Shown in pieces: positions 7,449 to 52,475 of a stretch of 64,000 nt of DNA. The DNA lies in NCBI GenBank assembly GCA_022530585.1, contig CP092821.1, positions 134,222 through 198,221 of the forward strand, read 5' to 3'. Made by a program: the position numbers and the translations under genes. Below the pieces are notes generated by a model that was given only the letters and a program-made list of their open reading frames with translations, ran no database searches and was not told the DNA's origin. How positions within the stretch are numbered: position 1 is the first letter of the stretch; every line of letters begins with the position of its first letter. This DNA is from Candidatus Nealsonbacteria bacterium DGGOD1a (lineage in GTDB: Bacteria > Patescibacteriota > Minisyncoccia > Minisyncoccales > UBA5738).

Positions 7449-7463
7449 ATTTTAAAAAATTAT

Positions 7464-10689: not shown

Positions 10690-10722
10690 AATTTTAATCC
10701 GCGCCTTTAAAACAAAAAACAG

Positions 10723-10750: not shown

Positions 10751-10808
10751 GATTGCGCGGGGAAAGTAAAGTAATTGATAAATCGCGAGCGGTTGGTATA
10801 ATCAAGTT

Positions 10809-11654: not shown

Positions 11655-11696
11655 TTTTTTTATACCCCGTCAGCTTGCCGCGGAGTTAATACTCCG

Positions 11697-12923: not shown

Positions 12924-12941
12924 ATAGATTTAAATTAACAA

Positions 12942-17402: not shown

Positions 17403-17534
17403 AATAAATGTAAAATTGAGAAATCAAAATGGAAAATGACAATGCAAAATTAAAGGTGTTGAGATTCCGACATTTTAACATTTTCAATTGTCATTTTAAT
17501 CTTTGATATTTACATTTTCAATTTTGGTTATGAT

Positions 17535-18746: not shown

Positions 18747-18763
18747 TTTTCGCCGTTAAACCG

Positions 18764-19294: not shown

Positions 19295-19835
19295 AAACAA
19301 ACCATTGATTGTTGCGGCGGTGTTCGCGGCAATCGTGTTGGCGCTGGTTTTTCTCGTTGCCGCGCCGTTGATCGCAAATATCAATAATGCCGGTTTGCGG
19401 ATTGCCCAACAGCAAGTCAAGATTGACGACTATGACCGGCGCCTTTCGGATGTTCGCGAATTTATCGCGTTTAAAAAAGACGAAAAAATTAATTTTGAAA
19501 GAATGGAGAAAGTTTTTGTTGACAGCCGGATGCCGCTTGATTTCATAAATTTTCTGGAAGCCGCGGCCCAAGACTGCGGCGTTGGCATTAAATTTTCATC
19601 GTCAATGCCGCGGCAAGCCGTTAAGGGGGAATGGCCTTCGATTTCGATTGAAGCGGATATTTCGGGAAACATTTCCAATATCTTTCAATTTGTCGAAAAG
19701 ATCGAGAACAGTCCCTATTTGCTGGCGGCGCAGAATTTCGAGATTAGCTCCAATTTGCCGGATGCCGCCGCGCCGGAATTATCCGCGAGCGGCGGCGGCA
19801 AGGCGCATATTTTATTGAAAGCTTATGCGGAATAA
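19281..19835 (+). CDS. pilO: PilO-like protein
   Basis: N-terminal TM (LIVAAVFAAIVLALVFLVAAPL) then coiled-coil, position after pilN; ATG 19281 preferred to 19263. Confidence 0.5.
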   Translation: MQNLKNKPLIVAAVFAAIVLALVFLVAAPLIANINNAGLRIAQQQVKIDDYDRRLSDVREFIAFKKDEKINFERMEKVFVDSRMPLDFINFLEAAAQDCGVGIKFSSSMPRQAVKGEWPSISIEADISGNISNIFQFVEKIENSPYLLAAQNFEISSNLPDAAAPELSASGGGKAHILLKAYAE

Positions 19836-30431: not shown

Positions 30432-30482
30432 GCCTTAATCGTATCAAAATGATACGATTAAGGCATATAAATGATACGATTA
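30432..30482 (+). promoter_or_regulatory. Candidate operator: perfect 14-bp-arm palindrome plus a third half-site over the Fic-like gene start
   Basis: GCCTTAATCGTATC-AAAAT-GATACGATTAAGGC, then GATACGATTA again at 30473-30482. Confidence 0.55.
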
Positions 30483-31540
30483 TGCAACAATTATCCCAAA
30501 AACAGCAAAAAATCCTTTCGATTTTGGTAAAAAATGGCAAGATGTCGTCTTCAGCTATTCGCGAGGCGTTGCTCAAAGCAAAAGAAAATGTGGCACTGAT
30601 TACTGTTAAAAGAGCGTTATCGGAAATGGTTGATGCCGGGGTTATAATTGAGGCCGGCGGGGGAAGATCAACCGTTTATGGAATTGGTATTCCCGGCAGG
30701 GTATTTTTTGATATTGATGCAAGGGATTATTGCGCCGTTGAACCGGATTGGCGTTATGGGTTGAGCCGCTATAATTTTGATTTGTTTGCAAAGATGCCCA
30801 CGGAAGTATTTTATGACGAAGAAAGGGCAAGGCTTGAGGCGGCGACAAAAACCTACAAACAAAGATCGCAAAATGTTACACCGGTAACGCAAAAAAAAGA
30901 ATTGGAGCGGCTGATAATTGAGCTATCGTGGAAATCTTCAAAAATAGAGGGCAACACTTACACATTGTTGGAAACCGAAAAACTTATTTTGGAAAATAAA
31001 AAGGCAGTTGGCCGCAGCGAAAACGAAACCCAGATGATATTGAACCATAAAGACGCTTTTGATTTTGTTCGCCAAAACCAGCAGGAATTCAAAAAAATAA
31101 GCCGCGCCAATCTTGAAAAACTCCACTCGATTTTAGTGAAAGATATGGAGGTCGGTTTTGGTTTGCGCAAGGCGCCGGTTGGGATCACGGGCACCAAATA
31201 CCAGCCGCTTGATAATATTTACCAGGTCGAAGAAGCGGTTAAGACGCTTTCCGCGGCGGCGGATAGAATGGAGAATATTTTTGCAAAGTCATTGCTGGCG
31301 GTTTTGGGCATAAGCTATGTTCAGCCGTTTGAAGACGGCAACAAGCGCACCGGCCGCTTAATGGCCAATGCATTGCTTTTATCCCACAGTCTGGCGCCGC
31401 TTTCGTATCGCAGCGTCGACGAAACGGATTACCGCCAGGCAACAATAGTATTTTACGAACTCAATTCGATGATACCTTTCAAAGAGATTTTTATCGGACA
31501 ATGCGAATTTGCGGCCAATAATTACGCGCTTGGATTATAA
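30482..31540 (+). CDS. wHTH + Fic-fold protein with degenerate active-site motif
   Basis: QPFEDGNKRTGRLMANALL in place of HxFx(D/E)GNGRxxR; N-terminal ILSILVKNGKMSSSAIREAL..ITVKRALSEMV; ATG 30482 preferred to 30449, which lies inside the palindrome. Confidence 0.75.
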   Translation: MQQLSQKQQKILSILVKNGKMSSSAIREALLKAKENVALITVKRALSEMVDAGVIIEAGGGRSTVYGIGIPGRVFFDIDARDYCAVEPDWRYGLSRYNFDLFAKMPTEVFYDEERARLEAATKTYKQRSQNVTPVTQKKELERLIIELSWKSSKIEGNTYTLLETEKLILENKKAVGRSENETQMILNHKDAFDFVRQNQQEFKKISRANLEKLHSILVKDMEVGFGLRKAPVGITGTKYQPLDNIYQVEEAVKTLSAAADRMENIFAKSLLAVLGISYVQPFEDGNKRTGRLMANALLLSHSLAPLSYRSVDETDYRQATIVFYELNSMIPFKEIFIGQCEFAANNYALGL

Positions 31541-37346: not shown

Positions 37347-37528
37347 CTGGTATTCTTATAAAATAACTTTATTAATTTGTCAAATTTTTTTGGAAAAATT
37401 TGCGGTTCAAAAATTGTTGCAAACTTATTCACAAACTTATTCACAATTGACATTGCGTTTTAACTTTGGGAAAATAAAACAATGAACTTTGTTTTCTAAT
37501 TTTTAATTGGAATTATTTCCAAAACATT

Positions 37529-40500
37529 ATGGACATAAAAAATCTCGCTAGTCATTTTCCCGCTCATGTTAAAACAGTTGCTTTTTTTGTTCTTCCGCTG
37601 GCAATGGCTTTTATTATTTTTAATATCGTGGTGCATGCCGCCGATTCAGACTGTACGAATTTGTGTGATAATGAAAGGGTGGATAATGTTCTGAAATGGA
37701 CTTGTAGCGAAGGCGGGTTCAGCGAAACCGACACTATCAGGTCCAGGGCTTGCGATAAATTAAAAGCAGATTTATCCAAGGCGGAGACAGCCGCGCCTGC
37801 TTCAACGGCGGTTACGGCAAAATCAACGGTAGATTTAATAACAGAGGTTAATAAAGAGGTTTATAAAGATGAATTGGCCGAGGCTCGTTCCCAGTTTGCG
37901 GGTTCGTCTTCAAGCGCGGCCGGCGGCGCGAGTGTAGCAGATTCTCAATCTGGCGCGGGAAGCGGTTGTTATGATATGATCGGCAGAAGTTGCGTGGATG
38001 TTTGCAGGGAGGCAGACACTGATTGCGGCCAAAAACGCTGCGTGTGCGATGCCAATGGTTTTTTGACGGGAGAGGAGATGTATTGCAAGGGTGCTAGCCA
38101 TAGATGGACTTTGAGGCAAAGCAGCGACTGTACTGCGGACCAGAATTTGGATCAGGTTTCCGGCGGCAATCCGGCGGCATCTGGCAGCCCAAGCAGCACG
38201 GCCAATAGTTCGGCGGCAAATATTCAATGTAGCGGCGCGTGCGACAATAGGGCGGGCCACACTTGCGGTTGGCAGGTAAGTACGCAGCGGCATTGTTATT
38301 GCGATCCGAACGATAAATCTAAAGGTGAAAACGGGACATTCCACCTTGATACCGACTTGACCAAATACTGCACTTATTGTGCGTGGGATTCCGCGGCTTG
38401 CAATTGTCTCTACACTTTTGCCGATGGCACGACAAAGAAAACGCTGGCTTTTGGCGCGGCGGTGTGCGAGGAGAGCGGTAAATCGCAGAATTTCAGCATG
38501 GTTTGCAAGGGCGGGGAAATTGAAGGAGGAGACGGCTGTTTGAATCAGGTTTGCAACAGTTCCAATCCGCTTTGCTATAACGATGGCAATACCGAAACTT
38601 GCAACAAACTGGACGAAGCGATCATCGCGGTGGCGGGCGGAAAAGATTATATTACCAGTTCGTGTTCGGAAAAAGAAATAGAAAAAAGAGAAAAGTTCAA
38701 AGCCGATAATAGCTATTGCGCGGATAGCGAGGTGTTGCGCGACCAAATGAACATTGTGATCGGGAAAGGTATTTTTTCATCGGTTTTAAACAATGCTTCC
38801 GCGATAAATAATTTGGCGCAGGGAGACGCCAAAAAAATCGCGTGTTCGAACACAAATCTCACTTCTTGCGAGAAGAGCGATGATAAAACCAACGAATACC
38901 AATGCGTGAACAGCGGCGGTTGCCGGCTTTGGAATTGGGTTACGGGCGGCGGCAAATTATGTTCGGTTAAAAATCCCGATACCGGAACAAACTGCACTTC
39001 TGTTAAGGACGGGGGGGACAAGTGTTATAAATATATTGAGCTTGTGGCAGGCAATAATTGCGTAGGTATAGGCAAAAATGAAGGCAAAACAACCCTATCC
39101 GGCGAATATAGTTGCGGGGGCAAGCCCGAAACCGCCGATAAATCGTATTTGTGCGCCAACGGCGAATTCACCGAATCAGAAAATTGCGCCTCAAAAGGCG
39201 GCTGCGAACCGGCGACCGGCAAATGCCGCGGTGATTATTCCGAACAATGCAAGGCCGGGACTTTCCCGTGCGATAAAAACGAAGAATGCGATGCGTGCGG
39301 AAGCGATTATGAATGCAAGATTTCGTCTTCGTCGGGCGGTTCGGCGTCAGGTTATACCAACGCATATAACGACGCAGATTATACCGCCGGCGGCAAGAAA
39401 GGCGTTTGCCGAAAGAAAGACGGCATAACCGGCGAGTGCAGTTTCAGCGTTGACGCGGGAACTCCCAGCGCCAGCAGTTCGAAGTGCAAAACCGGGTCAA
39501 GCTACGGCGTATATGTGCCGTTCACGGTCGATACCGAAGGAGAATGTTCGGGTATTAATTGCACAGTGGCCAACGATTTTGACAACACTTCGGTAACCGC
39601 CACGCAATCGGGAGGATCAAGCTGGTACGCGTGCGCCAAACCGCAATCAAGTTCTTCGAGTTCGGACGGGTCAAAAGGAGATAATCCGAGCAGACTGAAT
39701 TTCACGATTTCCTGCACCGACGGCAAAAAAACTTCCCAAGATACCGCCAGTTGCGCGTTTCCCACCGCGGATGACAATAAATTCAAACAAGCCGAAGAAG
39801 ATGAACAAGCCAGCACGACCGAGGACAAGGCCAACGAAGAGGAGCAGAAAAAACAGGATGGCACCGCGCCCAAAGTAACGGTGAACAGCCCCAAAGACAC
39901 GATTTCGACCAAGACCGCGGAGTTGAATGTGACCACGGATATCGGCGCGACCTGCAAATATATGGACAGCAAGAACGGATCGTTCTCGGCGTCCAATTTT
40001 TCCGGCAACGGCATGGCGATGAGCGGATCGGGCGGCACGACCCACACGGTTACGCTGGGCAATCTGACCGAAGGAACCGCCGATGACTGCAAATACAACC
40101 ATACGATCGTCGTGCTTTGCAAGAACAGCAAAGCTTCATCGAACGCGACATCCGGCGCGATCGGTTCGGGCCAGACATCGTTTACGGTCGATCTCTCCAA
40201 GAACGCCGAAAACGCGCCCAAGGTGGCGAACGGGATGAGCTCGGGAAAAATCACAATTGCCAATCCCATATTAAAGGTTAGCACCGATCGGCCCGCGGAT
40301 TGCGAATATAAAGAAGGCGGCAGTTTCACTTTCAGTTCGGGTAAAAAATTCGATTCCACCGGCAATTACAACCATACCGCGCAATTGAGCGGCTTGACCG
40401 GCAAAGATTACGATTATTATGTGATTTGCAAAGACAAGGAAACCTGCGCGAAGAGTTCCGCCGATTTCAAAGTTGAGTTTACGGTCGATCTGGCGCTTGA

Positions 40501-42472
40501 TCCGGCCAACGCGCCCAAGATTACCGCCACCACGCCCGCGACCCAGACGGTGGCCAATCCGACATTGTCGATAACCACGGAAAAAGCGGCCACCTGCCAA
40601 TACAAGAAAGATGCCACTTTCACTTATGGCGATTCCTCCGCGACCCAGTTTACCACCGATGGCGACTTGGGACACACTGTGCTGTTGACGGCATGGCCGG
40701 ACGGCAAATATACTTTTTATGTGGCGTGCAAAGACAAAGCCACGGGCGCGGTGAAAACTTTGGAGCAGGCGATTGTCACCACATTGGATCGGGGGCAGGG
40801 AGCGCCGACAATTGTCAGCGTTACTCCGGAAATCCAAACCGTGGATAACCCGGCGCTGTCGGTGACAACCGATATTCCGGCCACCTGCCAATACAAGAAA
40901 GACGCCACTTTCACTTATGGTTCCGGCACCGCGCTTGAAAGCGCCGATGGTTACAGCCACAAAATCTCTATTGCCGGTTTGGCTGACGGCACGCACACTT
41001 TTTATGTGGCGTGCAAATCGAAAGACGCGAGCGGAACGGCAAAAACAATGGGAAACCCGATTGTAACCAAGCTTAGCCGTACCGGGACGGTGCCGGTGAT
41101 CACCAATACCACCGCCGGCAATCAAACCACGAATTCGCCCACGCTTTCGGTGAACACTTCCGCGGCCGCCACTTGCCAATATAAAGAAGGCGGCGATTTC
41201 ACTTATGGCGGCGGCACTCAATTTATTACCGACGGAAGCACAAACCATAGCGCGCAGTTGGCCAATATCGCCAACGGCCAGCATACTTATTATGTGGTTT
41301 GCAAAGATACCGCTTCCGGGAATACCAATCCTTCCGGCGCGCAAATTGTTTTCACGGTTAACACTACGACCGGCGCGCCGGTGATTTCCAACACCACGCC
41401 CAACAATCAGTCCGCCGGCGCGGTCACGCTTCTCATAACCACTTCCGCGGCCGCCACTTGCCAATATAAAGAAGGCGGCGAATTCACTTATGGCGGCGGC
41501 ATTCAGTTTACCACCGATGGCGGAACCGGCCATAGCGCGGTTTTAGGCAATCTTGGCGACGGCGCGCACACTTTTTATGTGGTTTGCAAAGACACGGCGA
41601 CGGGTGCGACTAACGGTTCGCCGGCGCAAGTGATCTTTACGGTCACATCGGCGGCAACTTGCGCCGATTTATCGACCAACGACAAGCAAAATGACAATGA
41701 TCGCAATGTTGACAACGAAGACGAATCGGATTCGGATTATTTGTGGCGCTCGCTGGAAGCCGGCACCCGCGATAAATTTACCAAAGTCGACTGGTATGCC
41801 GGGTATCAGTTCACAACCGAAAAAGACGGCCAGGTTACCCAACTCTGCGGTTATTTCGATGACGGCAGTTCCAACAAAGTGAGCTTGTACGGCGCTTCAT
41901 ATGCCGAATTGGCCAGCGTGCAGATTTCCGGAACAGGCGACTGGAAATGCGCCAGTATCAGCCCGGTTCCGGTTAAAACCGATAAACGGTATTATGTGAT
42001 TGCGCGGGTGAAGGATGGTCCGATTTACTATGAATATAAATCCGGATTACTGCCGCGCGATAACGATAACGCCACGGTTGAAGCGGGCATCCGGCAATTG
42101 GCCGGCGAAAAATTCGGCAAAGATATTAAAAAATACGACTATATGGTGTTCGGGCTGGTTGACGCCAAAATAAAATTCACATCCGAAAGCAATAAAGGGC
42201 CGGAGGTCGATACCGCCATTCCCGTGGGCACGATTTCGGGAAACGACACAATGATCTCGGTGGCGACCGATATCGAAGCGACTTGCAAATTCAGCCGCGA
42301 GGATGTTGAATACGCGGATATGAAATACTCTTTCGCCAAGACCGGCAACAAGACGCACGAACAAAAGGTTTGCAGTCTCGACGACGGCCCTTTCACTTTC
42401 TATATTCGCTGTAAGGGCGAGACCGGGACCAACGACGCGTCGACTTTGATCCAGTTTGAAGTGAGCGATTAG
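37529..42472 (+). CDS. Giant secreted surface protein (Cys-rich N-half, 7 two-Cys ~93-aa repeats, DUF4082-like module)
   Basis: 1647-aa uninterrupted ORF; signal anchor; six tandem repeats 39864-41650, seventh 42190-42469; DUF4082-like 41736-42180. Confidence 0.85.
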   Translation: MDIKNLASHFPAHVKTVAFFVLPLAMAFIIFNIVVHAADSDCTNLCDNERVDNVLKWTCSEGGFSETDTIRSRACDKLKADLSKAETAAPASTAVTAKSTVDLITEVNKEVYKDELAEARSQFAGSSSSAAGGASVADSQSGAGSGCYDMIGRSCVDVCREADTDCGQKRCVCDANGFLTGEEMYCKGASHRWTLRQSSDCTADQNLDQVSGGNPAASGSPSSTANSSAANIQCSGACDNRAGHTCGWQVSTQRHCYCDPNDKSKGENGTFHLDTDLTKYCTYCAWDSAACNCLYTFADGTTKKTLAFGAAVCEESGKSQNFSMVCKGGEIEGGDGCLNQVCNSSNPLCYNDGNTETCNKLDEAIIAVAGGKDYITSSCSEKEIEKREKFKADNSYCADSEVLRDQMNIVIGKGIFSSVLNNASAINNLAQGDAKKIACSNTNLTSCEKSDDKTNEYQCVNSGGCRLWNWVTGGGKLCSVKNPDTGTNCTSVKDGGDKCYKYIELVAGNNCVGIGKNEGKTTLSGEYSCGGKPETADKSYLCANGEFTESENCASKGGCEPATGKCRGDYSEQCKAGTFPCDKNEECDACGSDYECKISSSSGGSASGYTNAYNDADYTAGGKKGVCRKKDGITGECSFSVDAGTPSASSSKCKTGSSYGVYVPFTVDTEGECSGINCTVANDFDNTSVTATQSGGSSWYACAKPQSSSSSSDGSKGDNPSRLNFTISCTDGKKTSQDTASCAFPTADDNKFKQAEEDEQASTTEDKANEEEQKKQDGTAPKVTVNSPKDTISTKTAELNVTTDIGATCKYMDSKNGSFSASNFSGNGMAMSGSGGTTHTVTLGNLTEGTADDCKYNHTIVVLCKNSKASSNATSGAIGSGQTSFTVDLSKNAENAPKVANGMSSGKITIANPILKVSTDRPADCEYKEGGSFTFSSGKKFDSTGNYNHTAQLSGLTGKDYDYYVICKDKETCAKSSADFKVEFTVDLALDPANAPKITATTPATQTVANPTLSITTEKAATCQYKKDATFTYGDSSATQFTTDGDLGHTVLLTAWPDGKYTFYVACKDKATGAVKTLEQAIVTTLDRGQGAPTIVSVTPEIQTVDNPALSVTTDIPATCQYKKDATFTYGSGTALESADGYSHKISIAGLADGTHTFYVACKSKDASGTAKTMGNPIVTKLSRTGTVPVITNTTAGNQTTNSPTLSVNTSAAATCQYKEGGDFTYGGGTQFITDGSTNHSAQLANIANGQHTYYVVCKDTASGNTNPSGAQIVFTVNTTTGAPVISNTTPNNQSAGAVTLLITTSAAATCQYKEGGEFTYGGGIQFTTDGGTGHSAVLGNLGDGAHTFYVVCKDTATGATNGSPAQVIFTVTSAATCADLSTNDKQNDNDRNVDNEDESDSDYLWRSLEAGTRDKFTKVDWYAGYQFTTEKDGQVTQLCGYFDDGSSNKVSLYGASYAELASVQISGTGDWKCASISPVPVKTDKRYYVIARVKDGPIYYEYKSGLLPRDNDNATVEAGIRQLAGEKFGKDIKKYDYMVFGLVDAKIKFTSESNKGPEVDTAIPVGTISGNDTMISVATDIEATCKFSREDVEYADMKYSFAKTGNKTHEQKVCSLDDGPFTFYIRCKGETGTNDASTLIQFEVSD

Positions 42473-42491
42473 ATGTTTGAGATTCGCGATA

Positions 42492-42525
42492 AGGCCGGCC
42501 CCGGCGTATTTAACGGGGCCGGCCT
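42492..42525 (+). terminator. GC-rich hairpin between giant genes 1 and 2
   Basis: AGGCCGGCCCCG-GCGTATTTAA-CGGGGCCGGCCT; TATAAT at 42533-42538 just downstream; no T-run. Confidence 0.5.
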
Positions 42526-42560
42526 CCGAGTCGTATAATTTGAATTCATTAACAAAAATT

Positions 42561-45500
42561 ATGCCATTATCATTGTTTTCAATAAACCAAAAAAGCATTT
42601 TAGCTTTATTGTTGGGCGGATTGATTGCCTTGACCGCCGGCGCGGCTTTGGCCGCGGATTTGGTTTGGATGCCGGATTGGATTGAAAATAATGATCTTAA
42701 TTTTGGCGGTTTTTCCAATTTTATCGACGCGGCGGCCGGAGCCGGATTAACCGAAGACGAAACAAGAGCGATGATAGTGGCGCTGATCAATTCCAAATTC
42801 GGCGAAGAAGATTTTCTAACGGTGTTGCGCGAGAGCAATGCTTCAGCCGCTGGCAAACTGGCGGCTTTGGCAACTGCTGATCCTACATTCCAACAGCTTC
42901 TCGATGGTATTGACATGTATGCCAAAACATCCGAAGGCAAGAATGATCTGAAAAAAATTCAAGACCAACTTGCGAATAATACAACAGGTAATACAACAGG
43001 CAATACTGAGAGCAAAGCTCAAGCAATCAAAGATTATCAGGCAAAAATAGACACCGGCACGGCAACGGAAAAAGACAAAGAGGCCTATATCGCGGCTTTG
43101 AAAGCGTCGGGAGACACGATCGTGACCGATCCTTTGACCGGCAAATCATGGGCTTATTCAAGTTACGATCCTTCCGATCCGAAAAATGAAAAAGGAAAAA
43201 ATGTGATTGATACCGCGGCGCAATTCTCGCTGGACACCGGTTACGACCCTTGTCTTGACGGTTTTATGGTTGGCGGCGGCGATGAGGGCGGGGGAAGCGG
43301 GAGCGGGAGCGGGAGCGGATCGGGCAATGCTTCGGTAGTTTGCAATACTTATATTTATAATGATTGGGGGGCTTGCGCGGGAGGAACTCAATCGCGGACC
43401 ATTTTTTCCAAGGGGCCTTCGGGATGCACCGACACTTCTTCGGCGCAGTTGACGCAATCGTGCGCCGTTTCCTGCACTTCCTACACCTACAGCGATTGGA
43501 GCGCGTGTTCCAACGGCAGTCAGAGCCGGACGATTAAAACTCAATCGCCGGCAGGATGCACGAATACTTCTTCGGCGGATTTGACCAATGATTGCACCGG
43601 GAATGACGGTACAGCTTGCACTTCCTACACCTACAGCGATTGGAGCGCGTGTTCCAACGGCAGTCAGAGCCGGACGATTAAAACTCAATCGCCGGCGGGA
43701 TGCACAAATACTTCTTCGGCGGATTTGGCGCAGTCATGCACGGTTCAGACAGCTGTGTGCGCTTCATATACCTACAGTGATTGGAGCGCGTGCGTGAACG
43801 GCGGCCAAACCCGGTCAATGATTTCGCGGGTGCCGGCGGAATGCACCGATACTTCTTCGGCGATATTCACGCAATCCTGCGGCGTCGCCCAGCCGCCGAT
43901 AGTCGCCAATACCACGAACGCGGTTCAAATCAGCTCCAATCCGGTTTTGTCGGTAACCACCAATCAGGCGGCGGTTTGCCAATATGCCGAGGCGGGCGGT
44001 TTCAGTTATGGCAACGGCGCAACCTTCAATACTACCGGCGGGTACAACCATAACACCGGCTTGAACAATGTTAATAGCGGCCAGCATACTTTTTATGTGA
44101 TTTGCAAAGACAATGCCACGGGTGGCATCAGTACGGTTTTGAAAATAGATTTTAATGTCGATCTTTCGTTGGACCCGGCCAGCGCGCCGGTAATCGTTAG
44201 CGCGACTCCGGCCAAACAAACCGGCTCCAATCCGGTTTTGTCGATAACCACCGACCGGCCGGCGGCGTGCCAATATAAAAAAGACGCCGTTTTCGCGTAT
44301 GGCGCGGGCGTTTCAATTTCCACGACCGATAATTATAGCCACAGCGTTTCGATTTCTTCGCTGGCGGACGGCAGTTACAATTTTTACGCGGTTTGCAAAG
44401 ATAAAACCACCGGGGCGGTAAGCGCGGCGAAACAAATATCGACCGCGATTGACCGGAGCGGCAACAATCCCGCCGCGCCCGCGCTTGTTAACAACACGGA
44501 TACCTATCAAACGGTTAATAATCCGATATTGGCGGTGTCCACGGACAAAGCCGCGGTTTGCCAATACGGTTCCGGCAGTTTTACTTACGGCGCCGGCATC
44601 CAGTTTGCGACCGATGGCGGCACCAGCCATAGCGTTCAACTGTCCAATATCGCCAATGGCCAGCATACTTATTATGTGATTTGTAAAGATGCCGCGACCG
44701 GAGCGGTCAGCAATGCCGGATATCAGATTATTTTCACGGTTGATGTTCTCGATGGCGATAATTGCGCCGACCTTTCGTCCAATGACCGCAAGAGTGACTC
44801 GAACCGTTCCAATTCCGGCGGCGGGAATGCCAATTCAAGCTATCTTTGGCAATCGGTTGAAACCGGCACGCGGGAAAGATTCAGCGATGTTGATTGGTAT
44901 GCCGGTTACCAGTTTACTCCGGAAAAAGACGGGCGGATTACCCAGTTATGCGGTTATTTTGACAGCGGCGCCACCAATAAAGTTTCCATATACAACGGTT
45001 CCTACGCCGAGATTGCCAGCGCCCAAGTGGCCGGCAATGATTCGTGGAAATGCGTTGATATCAGCCCGCTGGAAATAGACGCCGACAGCCGTTATTATGT
45101 GATCGCGCGAGTGCAGAATAATCCGATTTATTTTGAATATAAGTCCGGAATGTTGCCGCGCCAATCCGGCGATGCCATCATTGAGGCCGGGGTCAGGCAG
45201 ACGATTATCGATCAGAAATTTAAGACTGATGTGGTTAAATACGATTATATGATCTTCGGCTTGGTGGATGTGAAAATTTCTTATGATCCGGCAAGCAATT
45301 CCGGTCCGGCAATAAGCTCGGTGGGTCCGGTGGGAACGATTGACGGTTCAAGCGCCACGATATCGGCGCAAACCGATCGGCAATCGTCATGCAAATTTGA
45401 TCGGGAAGATGTTGTTTATTCTTCGATGAAATACGCCTTTTCAAACAGTTCGGCGGGTAATTTCAGCCAAAAAGTGTGCGGGCTGGAAAGCGGCAATTAT

Positions 45501-45581
45501 ACCTTTTATGTGCGGTGCAAAAATGACGCGGGAAACGAGAATAATGTATCCAAGATCATACAATTCAGTATCTCGCGATAA
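42561..45581 (+). CDS. Giant secreted protein (4 TSP1-like Cys repeats, 4 two-Cys repeats, DUF4082-like module)
   Basis: ATG 42561 (MPLSLFSINQKSILALLLGGLIALTAGAALA signal) preferred to 42477, which spans the hairpin; GSGSGSGSGSG linker; repeats listed in findings. Confidence 0.8.
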   Translation: MPLSLFSINQKSILALLLGGLIALTAGAALAADLVWMPDWIENNDLNFGGFSNFIDAAAGAGLTEDETRAMIVALINSKFGEEDFLTVLRESNASAAGKLAALATADPTFQQLLDGIDMYAKTSEGKNDLKKIQDQLANNTTGNTTGNTESKAQAIKDYQAKIDTGTATEKDKEAYIAALKASGDTIVTDPLTGKSWAYSSYDPSDPKNEKGKNVIDTAAQFSLDTGYDPCLDGFMVGGGDEGGGSGSGSGSGSGNASVVCNTYIYNDWGACAGGTQSRTIFSKGPSGCTDTSSAQLTQSCAVSCTSYTYSDWSACSNGSQSRTIKTQSPAGCTNTSSADLTNDCTGNDGTACTSYTYSDWSACSNGSQSRTIKTQSPAGCTNTSSADLAQSCTVQTAVCASYTYSDWSACVNGGQTRSMISRVPAECTDTSSAIFTQSCGVAQPPIVANTTNAVQISSNPVLSVTTNQAAVCQYAEAGGFSYGNGATFNTTGGYNHNTGLNNVNSGQHTFYVICKDNATGGISTVLKIDFNVDLSLDPASAPVIVSATPAKQTGSNPVLSITTDRPAACQYKKDAVFAYGAGVSISTTDNYSHSVSISSLADGSYNFYAVCKDKTTGAVSAAKQISTAIDRSGNNPAAPALVNNTDTYQTVNNPILAVSTDKAAVCQYGSGSFTYGAGIQFATDGGTSHSVQLSNIANGQHTYYVICKDAATGAVSNAGYQIIFTVDVLDGDNCADLSSNDRKSDSNRSNSGGGNANSSYLWQSVETGTRERFSDVDWYAGYQFTPEKDGRITQLCGYFDSGATNKVSIYNGSYAEIASAQVAGNDSWKCVDISPLEIDADSRYYVIARVQNNPIYFEYKSGMLPRQSGDAIIEAGVRQTIIDQKFKTDVVKYDYMIFGLVDVKISYDPASNSGPAISSVGPVGTIDGSSATISAQTDRQSSCKFDREDVVYSSMKYAFSNSSAGNFSQKVCGLESGNYTFYVRCKNDAGNENNVSKIIQFSISR

Positions 45582-45637
45582 CTGATTCGTGTTTCGTTCG
45601 CGATCCGGCCAACCCGCGTTCGCGCGTTTCAACCGAA

Positions 45638-46378
45638 ATGAAAATCTTTAAAGCAATTTTATTTCTGATTATCTTTACGATCGCGGCCGGCTTTCCGGCA
45701 AAACCGGCTTGTCGCGCGGATGATGCGGCGGCGAAGGCGGGCGTTGCCGATTCCAAAACGGAAAAAAGCTATAATTTGGATTTGAGCTACGATAACGGCC
45801 AGCTTTCGGTGAAAGGTATCACGGTGGAAAATTTCCGCGCGCCGGACCGCCGCGTCCAACCCCAGGATGGCTGGATTTGCGATATTGTTTCATCCGGCGG
45901 CCAGCTGATATATTCTTTCAGATTTTCCATTCCGGATATAACTTGCCGCGACCAGCCCGGAACGGCGGGCAACTTGGAAGGCGGATGCCAGGCGGTTGCC
46001 GCAAAGGATTTTATTTTGATCGCGCCTTATTATTCCAACGGCGCGAAGATTGTCGTTTATTCGCCCGAGGGCAACGAGGTCTTTGGCATTGATACGGTCA
46101 AGTTCGCGGATTTGTGCGGAGATGATGTGTGCCAAGCGGGCGAGAATCGCCTGACTTGCGCCAAAGATTGCCGTTCCGGAGTGAAAGACGGCGTTTGCGA
46201 TGGAATCGCCGACGGTACTTGCGACGCGGATTGTTCGGAAAAAACCGACAGCGATTGTTCTCGCGGTCCGCAAGGAGTGTTGATTTATTCATTGATTGCC
46301 GCGGTTCTGGGGTTGGCTGTTTTAACAAGCTTTATCATCTGGCGGATAAACAAAAGAAAAAACAGTGATTTTATATGA
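45638..46378 (+). CDS. Secreted, C-terminally TM-anchored protein with CGDDVC..C..DC Cys cluster
   Basis: Signal peptide, DLCGDDVCQAGENRLTCAKDC..DGVCDG..CDADC, TM LIYSLIAAVLGLAVLTSFIIW + RINKRK. Confidence 0.65.
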   Translation: MKIFKAILFLIIFTIAAGFPAKPACRADDAAAKAGVADSKTEKSYNLDLSYDNGQLSVKGITVENFRAPDRRVQPQDGWICDIVSSGGQLIYSFRFSIPDITCRDQPGTAGNLEGGCQAVAAKDFILIAPYYSNGAKIVVYSPEGNEVFGIDTVKFADLCGDDVCQAGENRLTCAKDCRSGVKDGVCDGIADGTCDADCSEKTDSDCSRGPQGVLIYSLIAAVLGLAVLTSFIIWRINKRKNSDFI

Positions 46379-49300
46379 TTAATTTATTTTGGCGATTGTT
46401 AAAATTAAAATATCTCGCCCGGCGATTATTGTCCGCGGCGTTGGTATCCGCGATTATTGCCGGCAGTTTTCCGGTCGGAATGTCGGAAGTCCGGGCGGCT
46501 TTGCCGCAAGGAGAAAAAGAATCTTTGTCCGGCCAGGCCGGAGGCGATTACCTTTGGCAGTCGCTGGAAGCCGGCGATTTGGGAGGAATTGAAAACACAT
46601 CGCAATACGCGGGTTGGCGTTTTTCGGCGTTGAAAGATGCTTATGTTACCGAGCTTTGCGGCTATTTCAAGGGGGTTTATTCGGTGAATTTGTATGACGG
46701 CGCGTATAATCTCAAGGCCAGCGGCCAGATTACCGGTTACGAACAATGGAATTGCGCTTCAATCGCTCCGATCGCGGTTTTCAAGGGCGAGAAATATTAT
46801 GTCGTCGCCGAAATTTTGAACAGTCCGGTTTATTACCGGAGCGGCGCTTCGATGTTGCCGCGGCAGAATAAAGAGGCGATAATCGAAAGCGGAATAACGC
46901 AGAGAATCAATCAGCCGTTCGGATCGGATATGAAATCGGATGACAGTCGGGTTTTTGGCATGGTTGATGTAAAAATCACTTCCAAGCAGGAAGCGGAAAT
47001 TTTGATTAAAAAAGCGGGCGCCAGTTTGGCGCAAGCGGTGAGCGGCGCGGCCGGAAACGAAGCGGCCGGTAATTTTTCCGCCGTTGTGCGTAATTGCGCG
47101 CATGGAAAATGCATCGCTTGCGCCGCGGAAAGCTGCCGGATTGAAAGCGACGAACAGTCGAAAGATCAGAAAGAAAATACTTTTATTCAGATTTGCGCCA
47201 AAGGAAATTGCTGGAGTTGCACCAATGAAAATTGCGCCAAAACCGATGCGGCGGGATTTGTTAAAACCGGTTATTCATTCAAGAATTGCAAGAACAATAA
47301 ATGCATAAATTGCTTAAACGGCCAATGCAATGTTACCGGTGGCCAAGAGCCGACTTATTATAAGTGGGATGCGGCCGGCGGCGGAATGGATGGCGGCAGT
47401 TTCTTTATGGATACCGGTACGGGCGGAAGCGGCGGCGGGGGTTCGGGCGCGTGGGAAAGTTATTATGGCGGTAATTATTCCGGCGACGCTTTTGGCGGCG
47501 GCGGAGGAGGAGGCTTTGACGCCAAAGCCGCGGCAGTGGCGCTAGTTAATCATGCTTTCACTGACCAGGATTTTATTGACGCGTTGTTGGCTTATATGGC
47601 GGCCGCCAAAGAAGAAGGAATTACCAATACAACTCCGACTTACGGCCAGCTTGCCGAGTTTATCAATCGTGCCGCGGGCGAAACACTGATAGACACAGAT
47701 TCGGTTTCCGTTAAAGAACAATCAACGGTGAGTTCGGCAATCGAGACAATGGCGCCGATCTATTCGGCTTTTAGCATGACAAAAACCGATCCCAAAACCG
47801 GCGCGCTTGTGGTAACTCCCGGAAATCCGGAAACCGCGGCTTCCACTCGGGCATCCAGTTTGACTACCGGTTGGGGTTCCAAGATGAACGCGCCGGTGGC
47901 AAAAGACGCCGACGGAAAAGAAATTTATGTCGCGGTAAATGTGGGAGAAGAGGTTACGGCCGGCAGTTCGTTTTCGGTCCCGTTGTATGTTTTGGAAAAC
48001 GGCAAAATTGTTTCAAAGGGAGTAACCGGTTACAGCGTCAAAAATTCCGCGACCGCGCCTCATTCTTCCGAGGAAGCCAACGCGATAAACGCGAATGGCG
48101 GTATAGTATATGTTCCGGTGAGGGAATCGACGCCTGCCTATGGGCTTTTGAATTCCTCAACCGCGGCGACATTTACCAATAACGGGAAAAAAGCGGCCGG
48201 CGGCGGTGTTTCGCAGGTGGCGGCCGGTTTGCCGGCCAACGCGATTGTCGTTGACGCGCCTTCGGTTTCGGATAATTCTTCAACTCAAGGCGCGACGGTC
48301 GCGTCATCGGTGATTTCGGACTGGCTGCCGACCGGGTCGGCGGATAAGACCGCGGCGGCAACAACCAAAACCGGCGGCGCGGCGGCAACGGTTTATGTTC
48401 CGAAAGTTGTTGCGGCATCGCCAACCGCGATTGCTTCGGCGGATGGAACGGCCAAGATCGAATCCGATCCGCAAACCGTGGCCGATAATTCTCGAAAAAT
48501 TATCGATGAAATAAAATCGCAAATGAGCGAAACCGTAGTGGACGAATCCACCGGTGAAATTGAAATTATTCCTCCGGCAAGCGAAAGAACCAATGATTTG
48601 ATTTATGCTTGGGGTTCAAACACGCTTGGGCAGGCGGTGGGCCAAATCGAGGTAACGGCCAACGCGGATGGAACGCCGATAAACGCATCAACCGTAATCG
48701 CGCACCAGGCGATAACATATTCCCCGGCGGCGGTTCGGACGATTACTGAAGGCGGCGAAGCAAAGACATCATTGGTTTATGCCGCTCCGACAACCTATTA
48801 TTTGACTGAAGAAGATGTCGCGTCGATTAAAGCGGGAAATGTTCTTTATGCGCCGGTAGTCGCGGCCGAGCCGCTTAGTTTGAATTCCGGAATCGGATCG
48901 GAGTTTCAACCGGTGGAGAAAACCGGCAACGCGAACACATTGACCACCGGCGCGCCCGGACATTCTTTCCAAGCAACGGCTCAAGTGTCGGATTCTTCGG
49001 CCGGCGGCGCTCAACAAAATGATACGGTTTCCGATACGGCGCGGGCGATAGAAAATACCGGCGGGTTGTCTCTCGTTGACAGTCAGAAAAATTTTTTGGA
49101 CGACGGCAACGAGATACCGTTAAGCACGGAGATATTTTATAGCGACGCGGTAAATTGGCTGCGTTTGCCGTCCGGTTCAATTAAAGATTCTTACGAAACG
49201 ATTGCCGCGGCGGATTACCGGCGGGCGGGGTATTTTGAATTCAGAGACGCCGGTTTGTCTTTTAAAAAAATAATTTCCAAATCTTCCGGTTCGGCGGCCG

Positions 49301-50637
49301 CGGCAGTCGGCGATCTGTCGGCCGGAAGCGGCGATGCTTCCGCGGCCGGCACCGCGGCCAAATCCAAAAATAAAGGGCCGTTCGTGATTGGTTACGATCC
49401 GGTGATTACCGGCAATCAGATGCCGGAAATTTCCGTCAAAACCGACAGAAAAGCGGTTTGCAAGGCCGCGCCCTATGATCTCGAATATGGTTTGATGTGG
49501 AATATATTGGAAACTGCCGATGGCAAAAACCATCAAAAGAAATTTACCGCGCAGTTAAACGAGGGAACATATACTTTTTATGTCCGCTGCAAGGATGAAG
49601 CGGGAAATTTAAATATGTTTTCCCAAAAAATTGTATTTACGGTTGATAAAAGTTTTGACGAAAAAATTGCTTTTAACGAGGTGCCGCCAACCATAAGTTC
49701 CGCGGGCGCGCAAGTTCTAAATTCCAATGCCAAGATATCGGCGAACATCAAGAGCGGGGTGCCGGTGGACGGAGTCGAAGCGCGGGTGCGCGACCGAAAC
49801 GGCCGTTTTGTCGCGGCGTTTATTTTGGCGGATGGCGGCAACGGCAATTGGAATTATGACTGGCAAAATGTTGCCGGCATCGGCGCGGGCGAATACAAAA
49901 TTGATATATTCGCGAAAGACGCGTCGGAAAATTTTTCCGAGCAAAAAAACGCCGTTGCTTTTACCGTGGCGGCAACCGCCGCCGGCAATTGCAAAGATAT
50001 GAAAATGGGAGGTTCGTTCGCGAAAAAGATCGATGTGGTTTTCGTTCCCTGCGGTTATGGAAGCGATCTGGTTTCTTTTGAAGCGGATGCCGAACGCCAG
50101 ATTGAACAGTTTTCCAAATTCGCGCCGGTTGCCCAAAATATCGATAAATTCAATTTCCGCGCGGTGGAAGTTTCCGGTCTTGATTGCGCCGATGATTTGA
50201 AGGATAATATGGATAAGGATGCCGAAATTTTTCGCCAAGTCGCGCGGCCTTGCCTGCCGGACGCGGTGATGGTTTTGAAAAAAAATTCCCAAGGATCGGC
50301 CCACGGCATTTCTTTGGCGGGCGCGGGAATAGGGTTTGTTTCGGCTCAAGCGCCGACCGCTTCCATCCATGAACTCGGACACGCTTTTTTCAATTTGAAC
50401 GATGAATACAGTTATGGTTGCACTTATACCGATATGTCAAATTCTCCAAATTGTTCCAATGAACCGAAATGCGAAAAATGGAAAGATTTGGCGGGCGCGG
50501 GGTGCTATTCGGGGTGTACTTGCGAGGGTAATTACCGATCGTCAAACGATAGCGTGATGCTTGATCCGTCGCGGGCCACGCAGTTCAGTCCGGCGGCCAG
50601 CCGCCAAATTTTAAAAATACTGACTGTTTTTGAATAA
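46375..50637 (+). CDS. Giant secreted protein: N-terminal DUF4082-like module, long low-complexity region, one two-Cys repeat, Ig-like domain, C-terminal M64-like zinc metalloprotease
   Basis: 1420 aa; ATGA overlap with upstream gene; HELGHAFFNLNDEY at 50368-50409. Confidence 0.8.
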   Translation: MINLFWRLLKLKYLARRLLSAALVSAIIAGSFPVGMSEVRAALPQGEKESLSGQAGGDYLWQSLEAGDLGGIENTSQYAGWRFSALKDAYVTELCGYFKGVYSVNLYDGAYNLKASGQITGYEQWNCASIAPIAVFKGEKYYVVAEILNSPVYYRSGASMLPRQNKEAIIESGITQRINQPFGSDMKSDDSRVFGMVDVKITSKQEAEILIKKAGASLAQAVSGAAGNEAAGNFSAVVRNCAHGKCIACAAESCRIESDEQSKDQKENTFIQICAKGNCWSCTNENCAKTDAAGFVKTGYSFKNCKNNKCINCLNGQCNVTGGQEPTYYKWDAAGGGMDGGSFFMDTGTGGSGGGGSGAWESYYGGNYSGDAFGGGGGGGFDAKAAAVALVNHAFTDQDFIDALLAYMAAAKEEGITNTTPTYGQLAEFINRAAGETLIDTDSVSVKEQSTVSSAIETMAPIYSAFSMTKTDPKTGALVVTPGNPETAASTRASSLTTGWGSKMNAPVAKDADGKEIYVAVNVGEEVTAGSSFSVPLYVLENGKIVSKGVTGYSVKNSATAPHSSEEANAINANGGIVYVPVRESTPAYGLLNSSTAATFTNNGKKAAGGGVSQVAAGLPANAIVVDAPSVSDNSSTQGATVASSVISDWLPTGSADKTAAATTKTGGAAATVYVPKVVAASPTAIASADGTAKIESDPQTVADNSRKIIDEIKSQMSETVVDESTGEIEIIPPASERTNDLIYAWGSNTLGQAVGQIEVTANADGTPINASTVIAHQAITYSPAAVRTITEGGEAKTSLVYAAPTTYYLTEEDVASIKAGNVLYAPVVAAEPLSLNSGIGSEFQPVEKTGNANTLTTGAPGHSFQATAQVSDSSAGGAQQNDTVSDTARAIENTGGLSLVDSQKNFLDDGNEIPLSTEIFYSDAVNWLRLPSGSIKDSYETIAAADYRRAGYFEFRDAGLSFKKIISKSSGSAAAAVGDLSAGSGDASAAGTAAKSKNKGPFVIGYDPVITGNQMPEISVKTDRKAVCKAAPYDLEYGLMWNILETADGKNHQKKFTAQLNEGTYTFYVRCKDEAGNLNMFSQKIVFTVDKSFDEKIAFNEVPPTISSAGAQVLNSNAKISANIKSGVPVDGVEARVRDRNGRFVAAFILADGGNGNWNYDWQNVAGIGAGEYKIDIFAKDASENFSEQKNAVAFTVAATAAGNCKDMKMGGSFAKKIDVVFVPCGYGSDLVSFEADAERQIEQFSKFAPVAQNIDKFNFRAVEVSGLDCADDLKDNMDKDAEIFRQVARPCLPDAVMVLKKNSQGSAHGISLAGAGIGFVSAQAPTASIHELGHAFFNLNDEYSYGCTYTDMSNSPNCSNEPKCEKWKDLAGAGCYSGCTCEGNYRSSNDSVMLDPSRATQFSPAASRQILKILTVFE

Positions 50638-50655
50638 TCATAAATAACCAAAATT

Positions 50656-52302
50656 ATGCCATTGATTAAATTTGTTTCGATTAAAAAATGCGCCGCGTAT
50701 TTGTCTTTGGCGGGGCTCGCCTTGGGGATTTTGGTTTTTGGGATCGTTCTCGCCGACAGCGGCCCGGTTTTGAAGAATGTGAATCCGCAAGGCACGGTGA
50801 CATCTTCAAGCGTTAAAATAACTTTGGACACCGAAGATCTCGCGCGTTGCCGGTATTCGACCAGTGACGGCGGTTATGACAGCATGGGAAACAATCTCGA
50901 TACTCCGGACGGGTTATATCATTCGGCGTTGCTGGGAACGCTTAACGCGGGGCCTTATACCTATTATGTCCGCTGTAAAGATTTTGAAGGCAATGCCAAT
51001 GGTTCAAGCGCGGTCGTTAAATTTACGGTGGGGAATATCTCTTGCGTGGGCGAAAATTGCCCCACGACCACGCCGTCGTCGGGCGGCGGTACGGCACCGG
51101 TTCTTTCCGGATTGTTGCCGTCGGGGACGACTTATAATTCCTATGTCACTTTGTCGGTGAAAACCAATGAAGCCGCCAATTGCCGTTATAGCTGGTATGA
51201 CAAGGCTTTTGATGATATGACCTTGGTGTTTTCCACCTCGGATCAAAAATACCATACCGCGACCGCGTCTTTATCCAACTACGGTTATTACACTTATAAT
51301 GTCAGGTGCCGCAATACCGCGGGAAATGTGAACCAGGTGGCGGGAAAAATTTCTTTCCGTTACGCCAATAAAAATCCGGTCGTATCCACTCCGGTTGTCA
51401 CCGCGCCCAAAGATACCGCCGCGCCTGGGATTTCCAATTTGTCGCCTGCCGGGGATGTTAACGCGGCCAGCACCACCATTTCTTGCGTTACCGATGAAAC
51501 GGCGACATGCAAATACGATACTTCCGATACCAGTTATGATTCAATGGCCAATACGATGGATGGCGCCGGAAGCAAAAATCACAGCAAGATCGTGGCGTTG
51601 GACGCGGCCGGTCGCTACACTTACTATATCCGTTGCAACGATAAATCCGGGAATAAGAGCGATAGCTCAAGCCAGATCGGTTTCAATTATGTCGCGCCCG
51701 TCAAGGAAGGTCCGGCGATTTCCAATCTTCAGCCGACCGGCGCGATCTATCAAAGCAATGTGGCGTTAATCGTGACAACCGATAAAGCCGCGGATTGCCG
51801 GTATTCGGACAGCGACGCGGATTTTGAAGCGATGCATGATTCATTTTCCACCAACGACGGTTCGCTCCATCAGGCAACGGTTAATTTGGATAACTACGGA
51901 ACATACGCTTATTATGTGCGTTGCCGCGATACCCAAGGCAACGCGGATGACCGGTCCGAGGTGATCAATTTTGAATACAAGAATCCGAATCCGGATGAAA
52001 TTATTGGCGAAACCCCCGACGAAATCCAGCCCACGCCGCCCGCGGAAGCGACATGCGCGGAAACGAAGAACGGGGACAAAGACGGGGTATGCGACACAAC
52101 CGCGGATTGTATTTGTGATTTGGATTGTCCGGTAAGCGGCGACGACGCGGATCCCGATTGCGCGAATGTCGCGCCGGCGCCGGCAAACAACGGCTGGATC
52201 GCGATCATTCTTATCGGATTGGCGCTATTGATTATTATCATAATAATTATTGCGGTCATTAAAAGGAGGAGCGCCGGCGAGGAAGATGTGGAATTGCCGT
52301 AA
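50656..52302 (+). CDS. Secreted, C-terminally anchored protein with 4 two-Cys repeats
   Basis: 548 aa; signal anchor; 4 repeats (..C[RK]Y..D..[YF]..M....H....L..G.Y.Y.[VI]RC..); DGVCD..C.CDLDC cluster; TM IAIILIGLALLIIIIIIIAVI + KRR. Confidence 0.8.
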   Translation: MPLIKFVSIKKCAAYLSLAGLALGILVFGIVLADSGPVLKNVNPQGTVTSSSVKITLDTEDLARCRYSTSDGGYDSMGNNLDTPDGLYHSALLGTLNAGPYTYYVRCKDFEGNANGSSAVVKFTVGNISCVGENCPTTTPSSGGGTAPVLSGLLPSGTTYNSYVTLSVKTNEAANCRYSWYDKAFDDMTLVFSTSDQKYHTATASLSNYGYYTYNVRCRNTAGNVNQVAGKISFRYANKNPVVSTPVVTAPKDTAAPGISNLSPAGDVNAASTTISCVTDETATCKYDTSDTSYDSMANTMDGAGSKNHSKIVALDAAGRYTYYIRCNDKSGNKSDSSSQIGFNYVAPVKEGPAISNLQPTGAIYQSNVALIVTTDKAADCRYSDSDADFEAMHDSFSTNDGSLHQATVNLDNYGTYAYYVRCRDTQGNADDRSEVINFEYKNPNPDEIIGETPDEIQPTPPAEATCAETKNGDKDGVCDTTADCICDLDCPVSGDDADPDCANVAPAPANNGWIAIILIGLALLIIIIIIIAVIKRRSAGEEDVELP

Positions 52303-52334
52303 ATAATTTAAAATTTAAAGATCAAAATTAAAAA

Positions 52335-52372
52335 TTTTAGCGTCCCTTCCGTAGCAGGAAGGGACGCTAAAA
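52335..52372 (+). terminator. Terminator hairpin after the giant-protein cluster
   Basis: TTTTAGCGTCCCTTCC-GTAGCA-GGAAGGGACGCTAAAA followed by TTTCATCTTAATTTT. Confidence 0.6.
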
Positions 52373-52475
52373 TTTCATCTTAATTTTACATTTTGATTTT
52401 TTAATTTTTAATCAAAAAACCGCAGATAATTTCAATATCGGCGTGTTTTTTAAATCTAATCGCAGAAGCATCGGC

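Follow-up and report, generated by a model that had tools for sequence, protein, structure and literature searches.

An M64-type metalloprotease with a DUF4082-like module in a conserved surface-protein cluster of a Minisyncoccales bacterium, and its candidate partner p246

The window analysed here, a stretch of 64,000 nucleotides of contig CP092821.1 (positions 134,222 to 198,221, forward strand) from Candidatus Nealsonbacteria bacterium DGGOD1a, contains five same-strand (+) open reading frames (ORFs) which make up one cluster at 37529-52302, in the order A, B, p246, C and p548. The host is an ultra-small symbiotic bacterium of the Minisyncoccales, within the Candidate Phyla Radiation (CPR, or Patescibacteria), and the cluster encodes mosaic surface proteins. 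Protein C ends in a genuine, compact member of the M64 (igalysin) metalloprotease family, and it shares with proteins A and B a module which belongs to a divergent DUF4082 subfamily. The best explanation, which we regard as fairly probable, is that C is an exported multidomain M64 zinc endopeptidase within a five-gene surface cluster, targeted by its module, held by p246, and cutting at the site of contact.

37529..42472, + strand: giant protein A (1647 aa), with an N-terminal signal or anchor segment and a Cys-rich N-terminal half
42561..45581, + strand: giant protein B (1006 aa from the ATG at 42561), with a signal peptide and four 41-aa Cys repeats at 43341-43880
45638..46378, + strand: p246 (246 aa), the small anchored candidate partner, directly upstream of the protease gene
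46375..50637, + strand: protein C (1420 aa), the multidomain M64/igalysin-type metalloprotease
50656..52302, + strand: p548, the last gene of the cluster, with four Ig-like repeats, a Cys-rich stalk and a C-terminal transmembrane anchor

The order of these five genes recurs in two other contigs. One of them (L001, an 84-kb metagenomic contig) is syntenic with the window from a ketopantoate-reductase-like gene, via the five surface genes, to PolX. The other (L003), annotated as a Minisyncoccales metagenome-assembled genome, is the closest genome match, with 95% identity in the M64 domain and the gene order kept. Orthologs of C (P0002-P0007) are 40-61% identical to it, and their parts follow one another in the order signal peptide, module, triple Cys motif, long variable linker, one or more Ig-like domains and M64 domain.

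The M64 domain of protein C

49987..50634, + strand: compact M64/igalysin catalytic domain, aa 1205-1420 of C (216 aa)

Three enzymes provide the structural reference for the M64 family: the immunoglobulin A (IgA) protease of Thomasclavelia ramosa, hereafter IgAse (9i4z, 9qa6, 9qdh, 9ekk), BF3526 of Bacteroides fragilis (4df9, 9qdi) and BACOVA_00663 of B. ovatus (3p1v). In protein C, the Pfam family PF09471 (Peptidase_M64) is matched at aa 1287-1376 (E 1.2e-9), the score being 38.2 bits and the cut-off 26, and the protease motif HELGHAFFNLNDEY lies at aa 1332-1345 (nt 50368-50409), exactly where a sequence-only reading of this DNA had placed it. A profile of seven orthologous domains matches 4df9/9qdi (E 4e-8), 3p1v (E 1.6e-7) and the T. 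ramosa IgA protease 9ekk (E 8e-4). The catalytic domain was also modelled with AlphaFold2 (predicted local distance difference test, pLDDT, 76), and the top 17 Foldseek matches of this model are all M64 structures, among them 9qdi (E 2.4e-9, query-normalised template-modelling score, TMq, 0.69), 3p1v, 4df9 and IgAse 9i4z (E 1.9e-6). The M64 identity which the sequence-only reading had proposed is therefore borne out by family score, profile and predicted fold alike, and inspection of the active site found every catalytic element intact. A word-indexed protein search with the A8 profile returned nine compact M64 relatives, each of which carries a precomputed PF09471 annotation; this annotation is present in the orthologs P0002, P0003 and P0005-P0007 and not in P0004.

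The M64 family is defined by the motif HExxHxxxGxxD, in which two His and one Asp are the zinc ligands and the Glu is catalytic, with one extra residue before the Gly (PMC12402451, PMC12237041). Its counterpart in C, H1332-E-L-G-H1336-A-F-F-N1340-L-N-D1343, has identical spacing. The residues D1343-E1344-Y1345 correspond to D550-E551-Y552 of IgAse, which are the third ligand, a family-specific Glu and the “tyrosine switch” (PMC12237041). H1332, E1333, H1336, D1343, E1344, Y1345 and M1395 are invariant in seven orthologs sharing 54-69% identity, and the position of the motif Gly is occupied by Asn in C and by N, Y, G or R in the orthologs; Asn at this place is tolerated in metzincins (PMC12237041). 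The other traits common to C and the M64 igalysins are a metzincin-type fold with the zinc motif HExxHxxx-x-xxDEY and its Asp third ligand, an N-terminal strand motif (KIDVVFVPCGYG in C, compared with IDVAILAEGYT), a Met-turn and a C-terminal helix. The Met-turn S-V-M1395 aligns with the C-R-M of BF3526, in a segment where the alignment is low-scoring, and the helix is predicted at domain residues 202-212, where protein C itself comes to its end (aa 1420). With this set of residues in place, the domain is very probably catalytically active.

What sets this domain apart is how much it does without. At about 216 aa it is smaller than the catalytic domains of IgAse (313 aa) and BF3526 (about 269 aa). 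Both of these enzymes have a structural zinc site made of three cysteines, which in C are replaced by Ser, Ser and Ala (the Met-turn Cys by Ser, those of the helix by Ser and Ala): FSPAAS of C aligns with FCPVCQ of BF3526, the Met-turn begins with a Ser, and the last 37 residues, after Cys1383, hold no Cys. Six invariant Cys are found instead in the connecting segment (1349-1383). In IgAse, moreover, the catalytic domain is followed by a wrapping (FN3) domain needed for folding and activity (PMC12237041). There is no such domain in C, since the protein ends at the C-terminal helix, and wrapping is not a family-wide trait, as BF3526 lacks it too. Like IgAse, C is a large multidomain exported protein; unlike C, neither IgAse nor BF3526 has a described counterpart of the p246 gene. 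IgA itself, which the founding member of the family cleaves, is an implausible substrate for C, because the host is an environmental CPR bacterium.

A second tier of structural matches is made up of adamalysin/ADAM proteases and fragilysin (E 4e-5 to 1e-2, template-modelling (TM) score about 0.5). ADAMs resemble C in having their catalytic domain within a multidomain, Cys-rich and surface-tethered protein, but C has an Asp as third ligand with one extra residue before it, carries neither a prodomain nor a disintegrin domain, and is clearly closer to M64 in both sequence and fold.

Ahead of the catalytic domain, and apart from the module described below, protein C consists of the following parts.

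46375..46500, + strand: predicted signal peptide (by inspection and hydropathy), with a basic n-region, the hydrophobic stretch LLSAALVSAIIAGSF and the ending ...EVRA/A
47095..47328, + strand: triple C-x4-C-x2-C-x4-C motif just after the module (CAHGKCIACAAESC, CAKGNCWSCTNENC, CKNNKCINCLNGQC)
47365..49340, + strand: linker of variable length, rich in Ala, Gly, Ser and Thr
49378..49611, + strand: single Ig-like repeat of about 80 aa (Big_13/Y_Y_Y-like)

The triple Cys motif is kept in all orthologs. No family matches it, the Pfam matches in C falling only within aa 1011-1376; it could form a small domain stabilised by disulfides or by metal. The linker contains an element TTGWG..KMNAPV at 47863, which is reiterated three times in the ortholog P0002.

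The module shared by A, B and C

41735-42172, + strand, in frame: module copy A, aa 1403-1548
44838-45278, + strand, in frame: module copy B, aa 788-934 of the ORF listed from 42477
46546-46977, + strand, in frame: module copy C, aa 58-201, a predicted beta-sandwich and the first domain after the signal peptide

When the 64 kb are scanned in all six frames with a profile of the module, which is about 145 aa long, exactly three copies are found. These are the three in-frame copies which the sequence-only reading had claimed, with coordinates shifted by 0-8 nt. Their alignment has 51 invariant columns, and by BLASTP the identity is 63% between A and B (E 3e-75) and 46% between A and C (E 4e-45). 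The C-type module is 41-46% identical to the A/B type, each type being maintained as a lineage of its own. As for position, the module is N-terminal in C, as had been proposed; in A and B, for which a C-terminal position had been given, it is in fact penultimate, with one Ig-like repeat of about 80 aa after it.

Does this module belong to DUF4082? By Pfam's own gathering score (PF13313, cut-off 28.4 bits), single modules fall just outside: module A reaches 27.6-27.9 bits (E 2e-6 to about 3e-6), module B 20.1 bits (E 7e-4), and module C alone gives no DUF4082 match in Pfam. At E<=1, however, PF13313 is matched by 9 of 10 members of the module family. When the module alignment is compared by hhalign with eight domains that do pass PF13313, the probability is 99.5% over 144 columns (E 2.3e-23). 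An exhaustive HMMER search of representative proteins with an eight-sequence profile yields 447 matches, 245 of them at E<=1e-10, the more distant of which score 67-150 bits on PF13313. This exhaustive search was needed for the family to be seen, the word-indexed protein search having found only nine module relatives. Since the profile-profile match is to genuine DUF4082 domains, and since the module profile retrieves strong PF13313 scorers, the module represents a divergent DUF4082 subfamily. Of the two families named in the sequence-only reading, Peptidase_M64 thus passes its Pfam threshold (38.2 against 26 bits) and DUF4082 does not (27.9 bits at best, under 28.4); the likeness to DUF4082 nevertheless holds, as homology over the full length, despite the sub-threshold scores of single sequences.

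The module and DUF4082 have in common a length of about 145 aa, the motifs G-[YF]-x-F, L-[WC]-G, W, P-V, Y-Y and G-x-V-D, and a single or tandem occurrence in large extracellular proteins beside Ig-like domains. The subfamily of the window differs by its scores of 20-28 bits, with no match for the C-type copy, by two invariant cysteines (in LCGYF and WxC) and by an N-terminal YLWQS motif.

An AlphaFold model of the module is an all-beta sandwich (pLDDT 88.4, predicted TM score 0.87). The nearest solved folds are PHR, PA14, carbohydrate-binding module (CBM) and lectin domains and a mycobacteriophage central-fibre protein (E about 1e-3, TM 0.3-0.59), and among predicted viral structures the module resembles distal parts of minor tail proteins and of collagen-repeat fibre proteins (TM 0.6-0.68). 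With PA14, CBM6/35/61, the F-type lectin of lectinolysin, PHR and the distal domains of phage tail-fibre and minor-tail proteins, the module shares a similarly sized all-beta sandwich, and these domains too are accessory recognition modules on enzymes and adhesins. The likeness stops there: at TM 0.3-0.68 and 7-17% identity there is no evidence of homology, and no ligand-binding residues can be transferred.

In the wider family, one to eight modules are found per protein, at any position and mostly in single copy, together with Peptidase_C25, S8, C1, M28 and M64 domains, GH2 TIM barrels, alkaline phosphatase or Ig-like repeats. The M64 motif stands at the end of 14 out of about 158 module-bearing representative proteins. 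Being joined to so many different enzymes, the module behaves like an accessory rather than a catalytic domain, and this variety of partners, with the non-catalytic beta-sandwich fold, makes a role in binding or targeting a reasonable inference.

p246 and the proposed mechanism

The p246 protein begins with a signal peptide, continues with a conserved domain of about 110 aa (KSYNLxLSY...PYY) and a Cys-rich stalk (CGDDVCQAGENRLTCAKDC...), and ends in a C-terminal transmembrane anchor. The p246 and protease genes overlap in the sequence ATGA (46375-46378), which holds the stop codon of the former and the start of the latter. By hydropathy scan, all five cluster proteins have an N-terminal hydrophobic segment, and only p246 and p548 a C-terminal transmembrane anchor. 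Members of the p246-like family lie as follows.

45638-46378 in the window
9288-9986 in L001
about 5670-6413 in L003
10678-11406 in L004
10675-11427 in L005
2-1252 in L012
6752-7663 in L013

The association of p246 with compact M64 genes goes well beyond the window. The p246 gene is directly upstream of the protease gene in the window, in L001 and in L003; in the ortholog P0002, p246 is fused to the N-terminus of the protease, and in L012 the catalytic domain is fused directly to a p246-like domain, stalk and anchor, so that the p246-like part is C-terminal. In two Woesearchaeota genomes, a p246 homolog (BLASTP E 2e-12) is found immediately downstream of a Cys-rich protein of 725-740 aa ending in a compact M64 domain, which is 28-31% identical over the full 216 aa, and here again the genes overlap by ATGA. 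Metagenome contigs scanned with the p246 alignment gave nine loci. Six have an adjoining M64-motif ORF, among them L012 and a contig in which M64 genes stand on both sides; two are cut by the contig end just inside a module-bearing ORF, and one is too short to judge; an M64 neighbour is therefore present in 6/6 of the loci long enough to show one. The order of the two genes is reversed between CPR bacteria and Woesearchaeota, and fusions occur in both orders.

The archaeal proteins have features of their own. The Woesearchaeota M64-like proteins (L004 8459-10681; L005 8501-10678) are spaced at this site as is standard for metzincins (HELGHMMGLDDEY), with one residue fewer than in the M64 motif, and long N-terminal Cys-rich repeats take the place of the DUF4082 and Ig-like domains. 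In another metagenomic contig (L010, 541-10127), a p246-like gene lies between two M64-motif genes, the upstream one a 2080-aa frame without the module and the downstream one of 826 aa with it.

Fusions in both orders, together with an adjacency conserved across two domains of life, point to a physical partnership between p246 and the protease. The simplest role we infer for p246 is that of a tether keeping an otherwise anchorless protease at the membrane. The “secreted metalloprotease” of the sequence-only reading needs some refinement, given that the conserved and sometimes fused, membrane-anchored p246 points to surface tethering more than to free release. A structural role in trans is also conceivable by analogy, because in L012 and in the archaea the p246 domain is placed like the wrapping domain of IgAse. 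Homology of p246 with the N-terminal beta-sandwich of M64 proteins or with the IgAse wrapping domain was considered and rejected: neither Pfam at E<=10 nor a profile search of the PDB returned anything relevant, which leaves an analogy of position.

From these observations a mechanism can be drawn up for the reading that we favour, that of a module-targeted, p246-held endopeptidase acting at the contact site. The DUF4082 module would be a non-catalytic recognition domain giving the adhesin-like A and B and the protease C a related target; the likeliest is a glycan or surface polymer of the host cell or of the substrate. The flexible linker and the Ig-like domains would project the enzyme away from the cell, p246 would keep the protease, which has no anchor of its own, on the cell surface and perhaps support its fold as well, and the enzyme would cut proteins at the contact site, either for remodelling of the host envelope or for release of nutrients to an auxotrophic episymbiont. 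The Minisyncoccales include an obligate parasite of methanogenic archaea, and related enrichment cultures show high expression of secreted proteins that are peptidase-like, Ig-like or of galactose-binding fold (PMC12281837, PMC10936435). It is this lifestyle and these expressed proteins which make host-envelope proteolysis or nutrient release the leading possibilities.

The alternative with the most in its favour, possible in our view though doubtful, is a nutrient-scavenging exoenzyme, which would digest environmental proteins for a cell auxotrophic for amino acids while the module simply holds it on particulate organic matter. DUF4082 domains are carried by degradative enzymes (S8, C1, M28 and C25 peptidases, GH2, alkaline phosphatase), the nearest folds of the module are CBM- and lectin-like, and CPR bacteria are described as having reduced biosynthesis (PMC11665869). 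The adhesin-like cluster, the type IV pilus locus in the window and the coupling to a membrane anchor point rather to contact-dependent action, although scavenging and host interaction could coexist.

Two further readings keep to the cluster itself. In the first, which we judge unlikely, the module is an assembly domain through which A, B and C bind one another, forming one surface fibre or complex that carries the protease. It would account for the presence of the module in three proteins of one cluster, an arrangement kept in the syntenic L001, and it agrees with the Ig-like repeat counted as common to the cluster proteins (seen in A, B, C and p548) and with the similar folds of phage fibre proteins, which are oligomeric. 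Against it, the module of the wider family is mostly a single copy on unrelated enzymes outside such clusters, and the C-type module, at 41-46% identity, has grown apart from the A/B type and is kept as a separate lineage. In the second, to which we attach little probability, the protease matures or sheds its own co-encoded giants A, B and p548 instead of acting on an external substrate. These potential substrates do share the Ig-like repeat and the module with the protease, whose structural likeness to adamalysin/ADAM sheddases is suggestive, but the Woesearchaeota protease-p246 pair has no A-, B- or p548-like neighbours among the ORFs inspected around it, and there is no evidence of processing sites. 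Of the four rivals only the last is clearly disfavoured: that the M64 domain is a dead pseudo-protease serving for binding, as the lost Gly of HExxHxxxGxxD (N here, N/Y/G/R in orthologs) and the absent structural-zinc cysteines might suggest, is rejected as most improbable, since both His, the Glu, the Asp ligand, the Glu-Tyr pair and the Met of the Met-turn are invariant across the seven orthologs (54-69% identity), the same catalytic residues recur in 14 distant representatives, and metzincins tolerate Asn at the Gly position (PMC12237041).

Several points nevertheless weigh against the module-targeted, p246-held protease and must be set beside the evidence for it. The catalytic-domain model is of low confidence at residues 140-200, which are the Cys-rich connecting segment. 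For the module, only weak structural matches turn up (TM 0.5-0.68, E about 1e-3 to 3e-5), and these indicate nothing beyond a generic beta-sandwich. Sequence searches of the PDB with the three-module profile and with a profile of genuine DUF4082 domains gave only spurious WD40 matches, so no solved DUF4082 structure is usable, and in the literature searched, DUF4082/PF13313 has two passing mentions and no ligand or functional data. As for p246, it has no relative in Pfam (E<=10), NCBIfam or the PDB, where the profile search returned OspA-like noise, and its role is drawn from gene neighbourhood and fusions only. Signal peptides were called by eye and hydropathy, and the operon status of the cluster comes from spacing and consensus scans.

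A broader proposal, which we put forward as rather speculative, is that the compact M64 protease and p246 form an undescribed two-part surface protease system of ultra-small episymbionts, in CPR bacteria and in Woesearchaeota (DPANN archaea). In such a system p246 would provide in trans a wrapping-like, beta-rich domain packed on the catalytic domain, as well as the membrane anchor. The pair would have been kept, reordered and repeatedly fused, and in the Minisyncoccales the protease would have gained a DUF4082 targeting module, shared with the adhesins, which directs it to the host envelope.

Genomic setting and significance

The other features of the cluster are the following.

37447..37475, + strand: promoter-like site TTGACA-17-GAAAAT with TG, about 55 nt upstream of gene A, a consensus match only
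Protein A: seven Ig-like repeats of about 80 aa, the DUF4082-like module (41735-42172) and then the last of the repeats (42200-42433)
Protein B: four Ig-like repeats, the DUF4082-like module (44838-45278) and then the last of the repeats (45306-45545)
39869-42433 in A, 43896-45545 in B, 49378-49611 in C and 50764-51951 in p548, + strand: spans of the Ig-like repeats
52332..52375, on both strands: near-perfect hairpin of 19-20 bp, 30 nt past the p548 stop

The gaps between cluster genes measure 19-89 nt, except that p246 and C overlap by ATGA. The hairpin downstream of p548 is likely to be the terminator of the cluster, and a bidirectional one. The ORF of B as listed mechanically begins at a TTG (42477), which is probably too early: since the L001 ortholog begins with MPLPLF, and from the position of the signal peptide, the true start is probably the ATG at 42561. 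The spacer between A and B contains a GC-rich hairpin (42493-42524) and a promoter-like site with TATAAT (42510-42539), so gene B may be driven by a promoter of its own.

The Ig-like repeat of about 80 aa (Big_13/Y_Y_Y-like, ending in FYVxCKD) is present in 16 copies; A carries seven of them, B and p548 four each, and C one. NCBIfam matches none of the five cluster proteins. Protein B also has, at 43341-43880, four tandem 41-aa repeats of the form C-x-S-Y-x-Y-S-D-W-S-A-C-x-x-G-x-Q-S-R-T...C. Their core W-S-x-C...G-x-Q-x-R resembles thrombospondin type-1 repeats; Pfam at E<=1 gives no TSP_1 match for them.

Elsewhere in the window, a type IV pilus locus (1613-19835) is found about 18 kb upstream of the surface-protein cluster.

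1613-3394: PilB-like ATPase
11697-12923: PilC-like protein
12942-15846: two large proteins carrying N-terminal methylation motifs; one of them also has a CarboxypepD_reg domain
17535-18746: PilM

Two adjoining genes encode Fic/DOC-domain proteins (29062-30192 and 30449-31540), the second with an N-terminal winged-helix domain, and a 926-aa protein at 4668-7448 (- strand) combines an ADP-ribosylglycohydrolase with PKD domains, an odd pairing for what is apparently an extracellular architecture. The window also holds three tRNAs, PolX and the ketopantoate-reductase-like gene. This content, with its pilus locus, tRNAs and Fic genes, fits a CPR chromosome and not a mobile element; a viral or mobile origin of the cluster is not supported, its flanks being tRNAs, the type IV pilus locus, PolX and the ketopantoate-reductase-like gene, of which the last two are found again beside the cluster in L001.

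Both domain families discussed here were already known, and the sequence-only reading had named both correctly. What is new is a divergent DUF4082 subfamily, a compact M64 variant without structural-zinc cysteines and without a wrapping domain, a recurrent module-Ig-M64 architecture, and a protease-p246 gene pair common to CPR bacteria and DPANN archaea. Attachment to host cells is the way of life of CPR/Patescibacteria and DPANN cells, and to our knowledge very little has been learned about the proteins which mediate this contact. The cluster offers a concrete and conserved set of candidates for it: two adhesin-like giants, a protease sharing their module, and two anchored proteins. As a putative shared targeting module, DUF4082 gains a context in which its function can be tested, and the M64/igalysin family, recently defined structurally and known from gut bacteria, is extended to a stripped-down form in environmental episymbionts. 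The protease-p246 pair, backed by fusions in both orders, amounts to a testable prediction of physical partnership. This is an advance at the level of annotation, with one lead worth following and current concepts unchanged, and its relevance lies mainly in research on the contact between episymbionts and their hosts and on the evolution of the metzincins.

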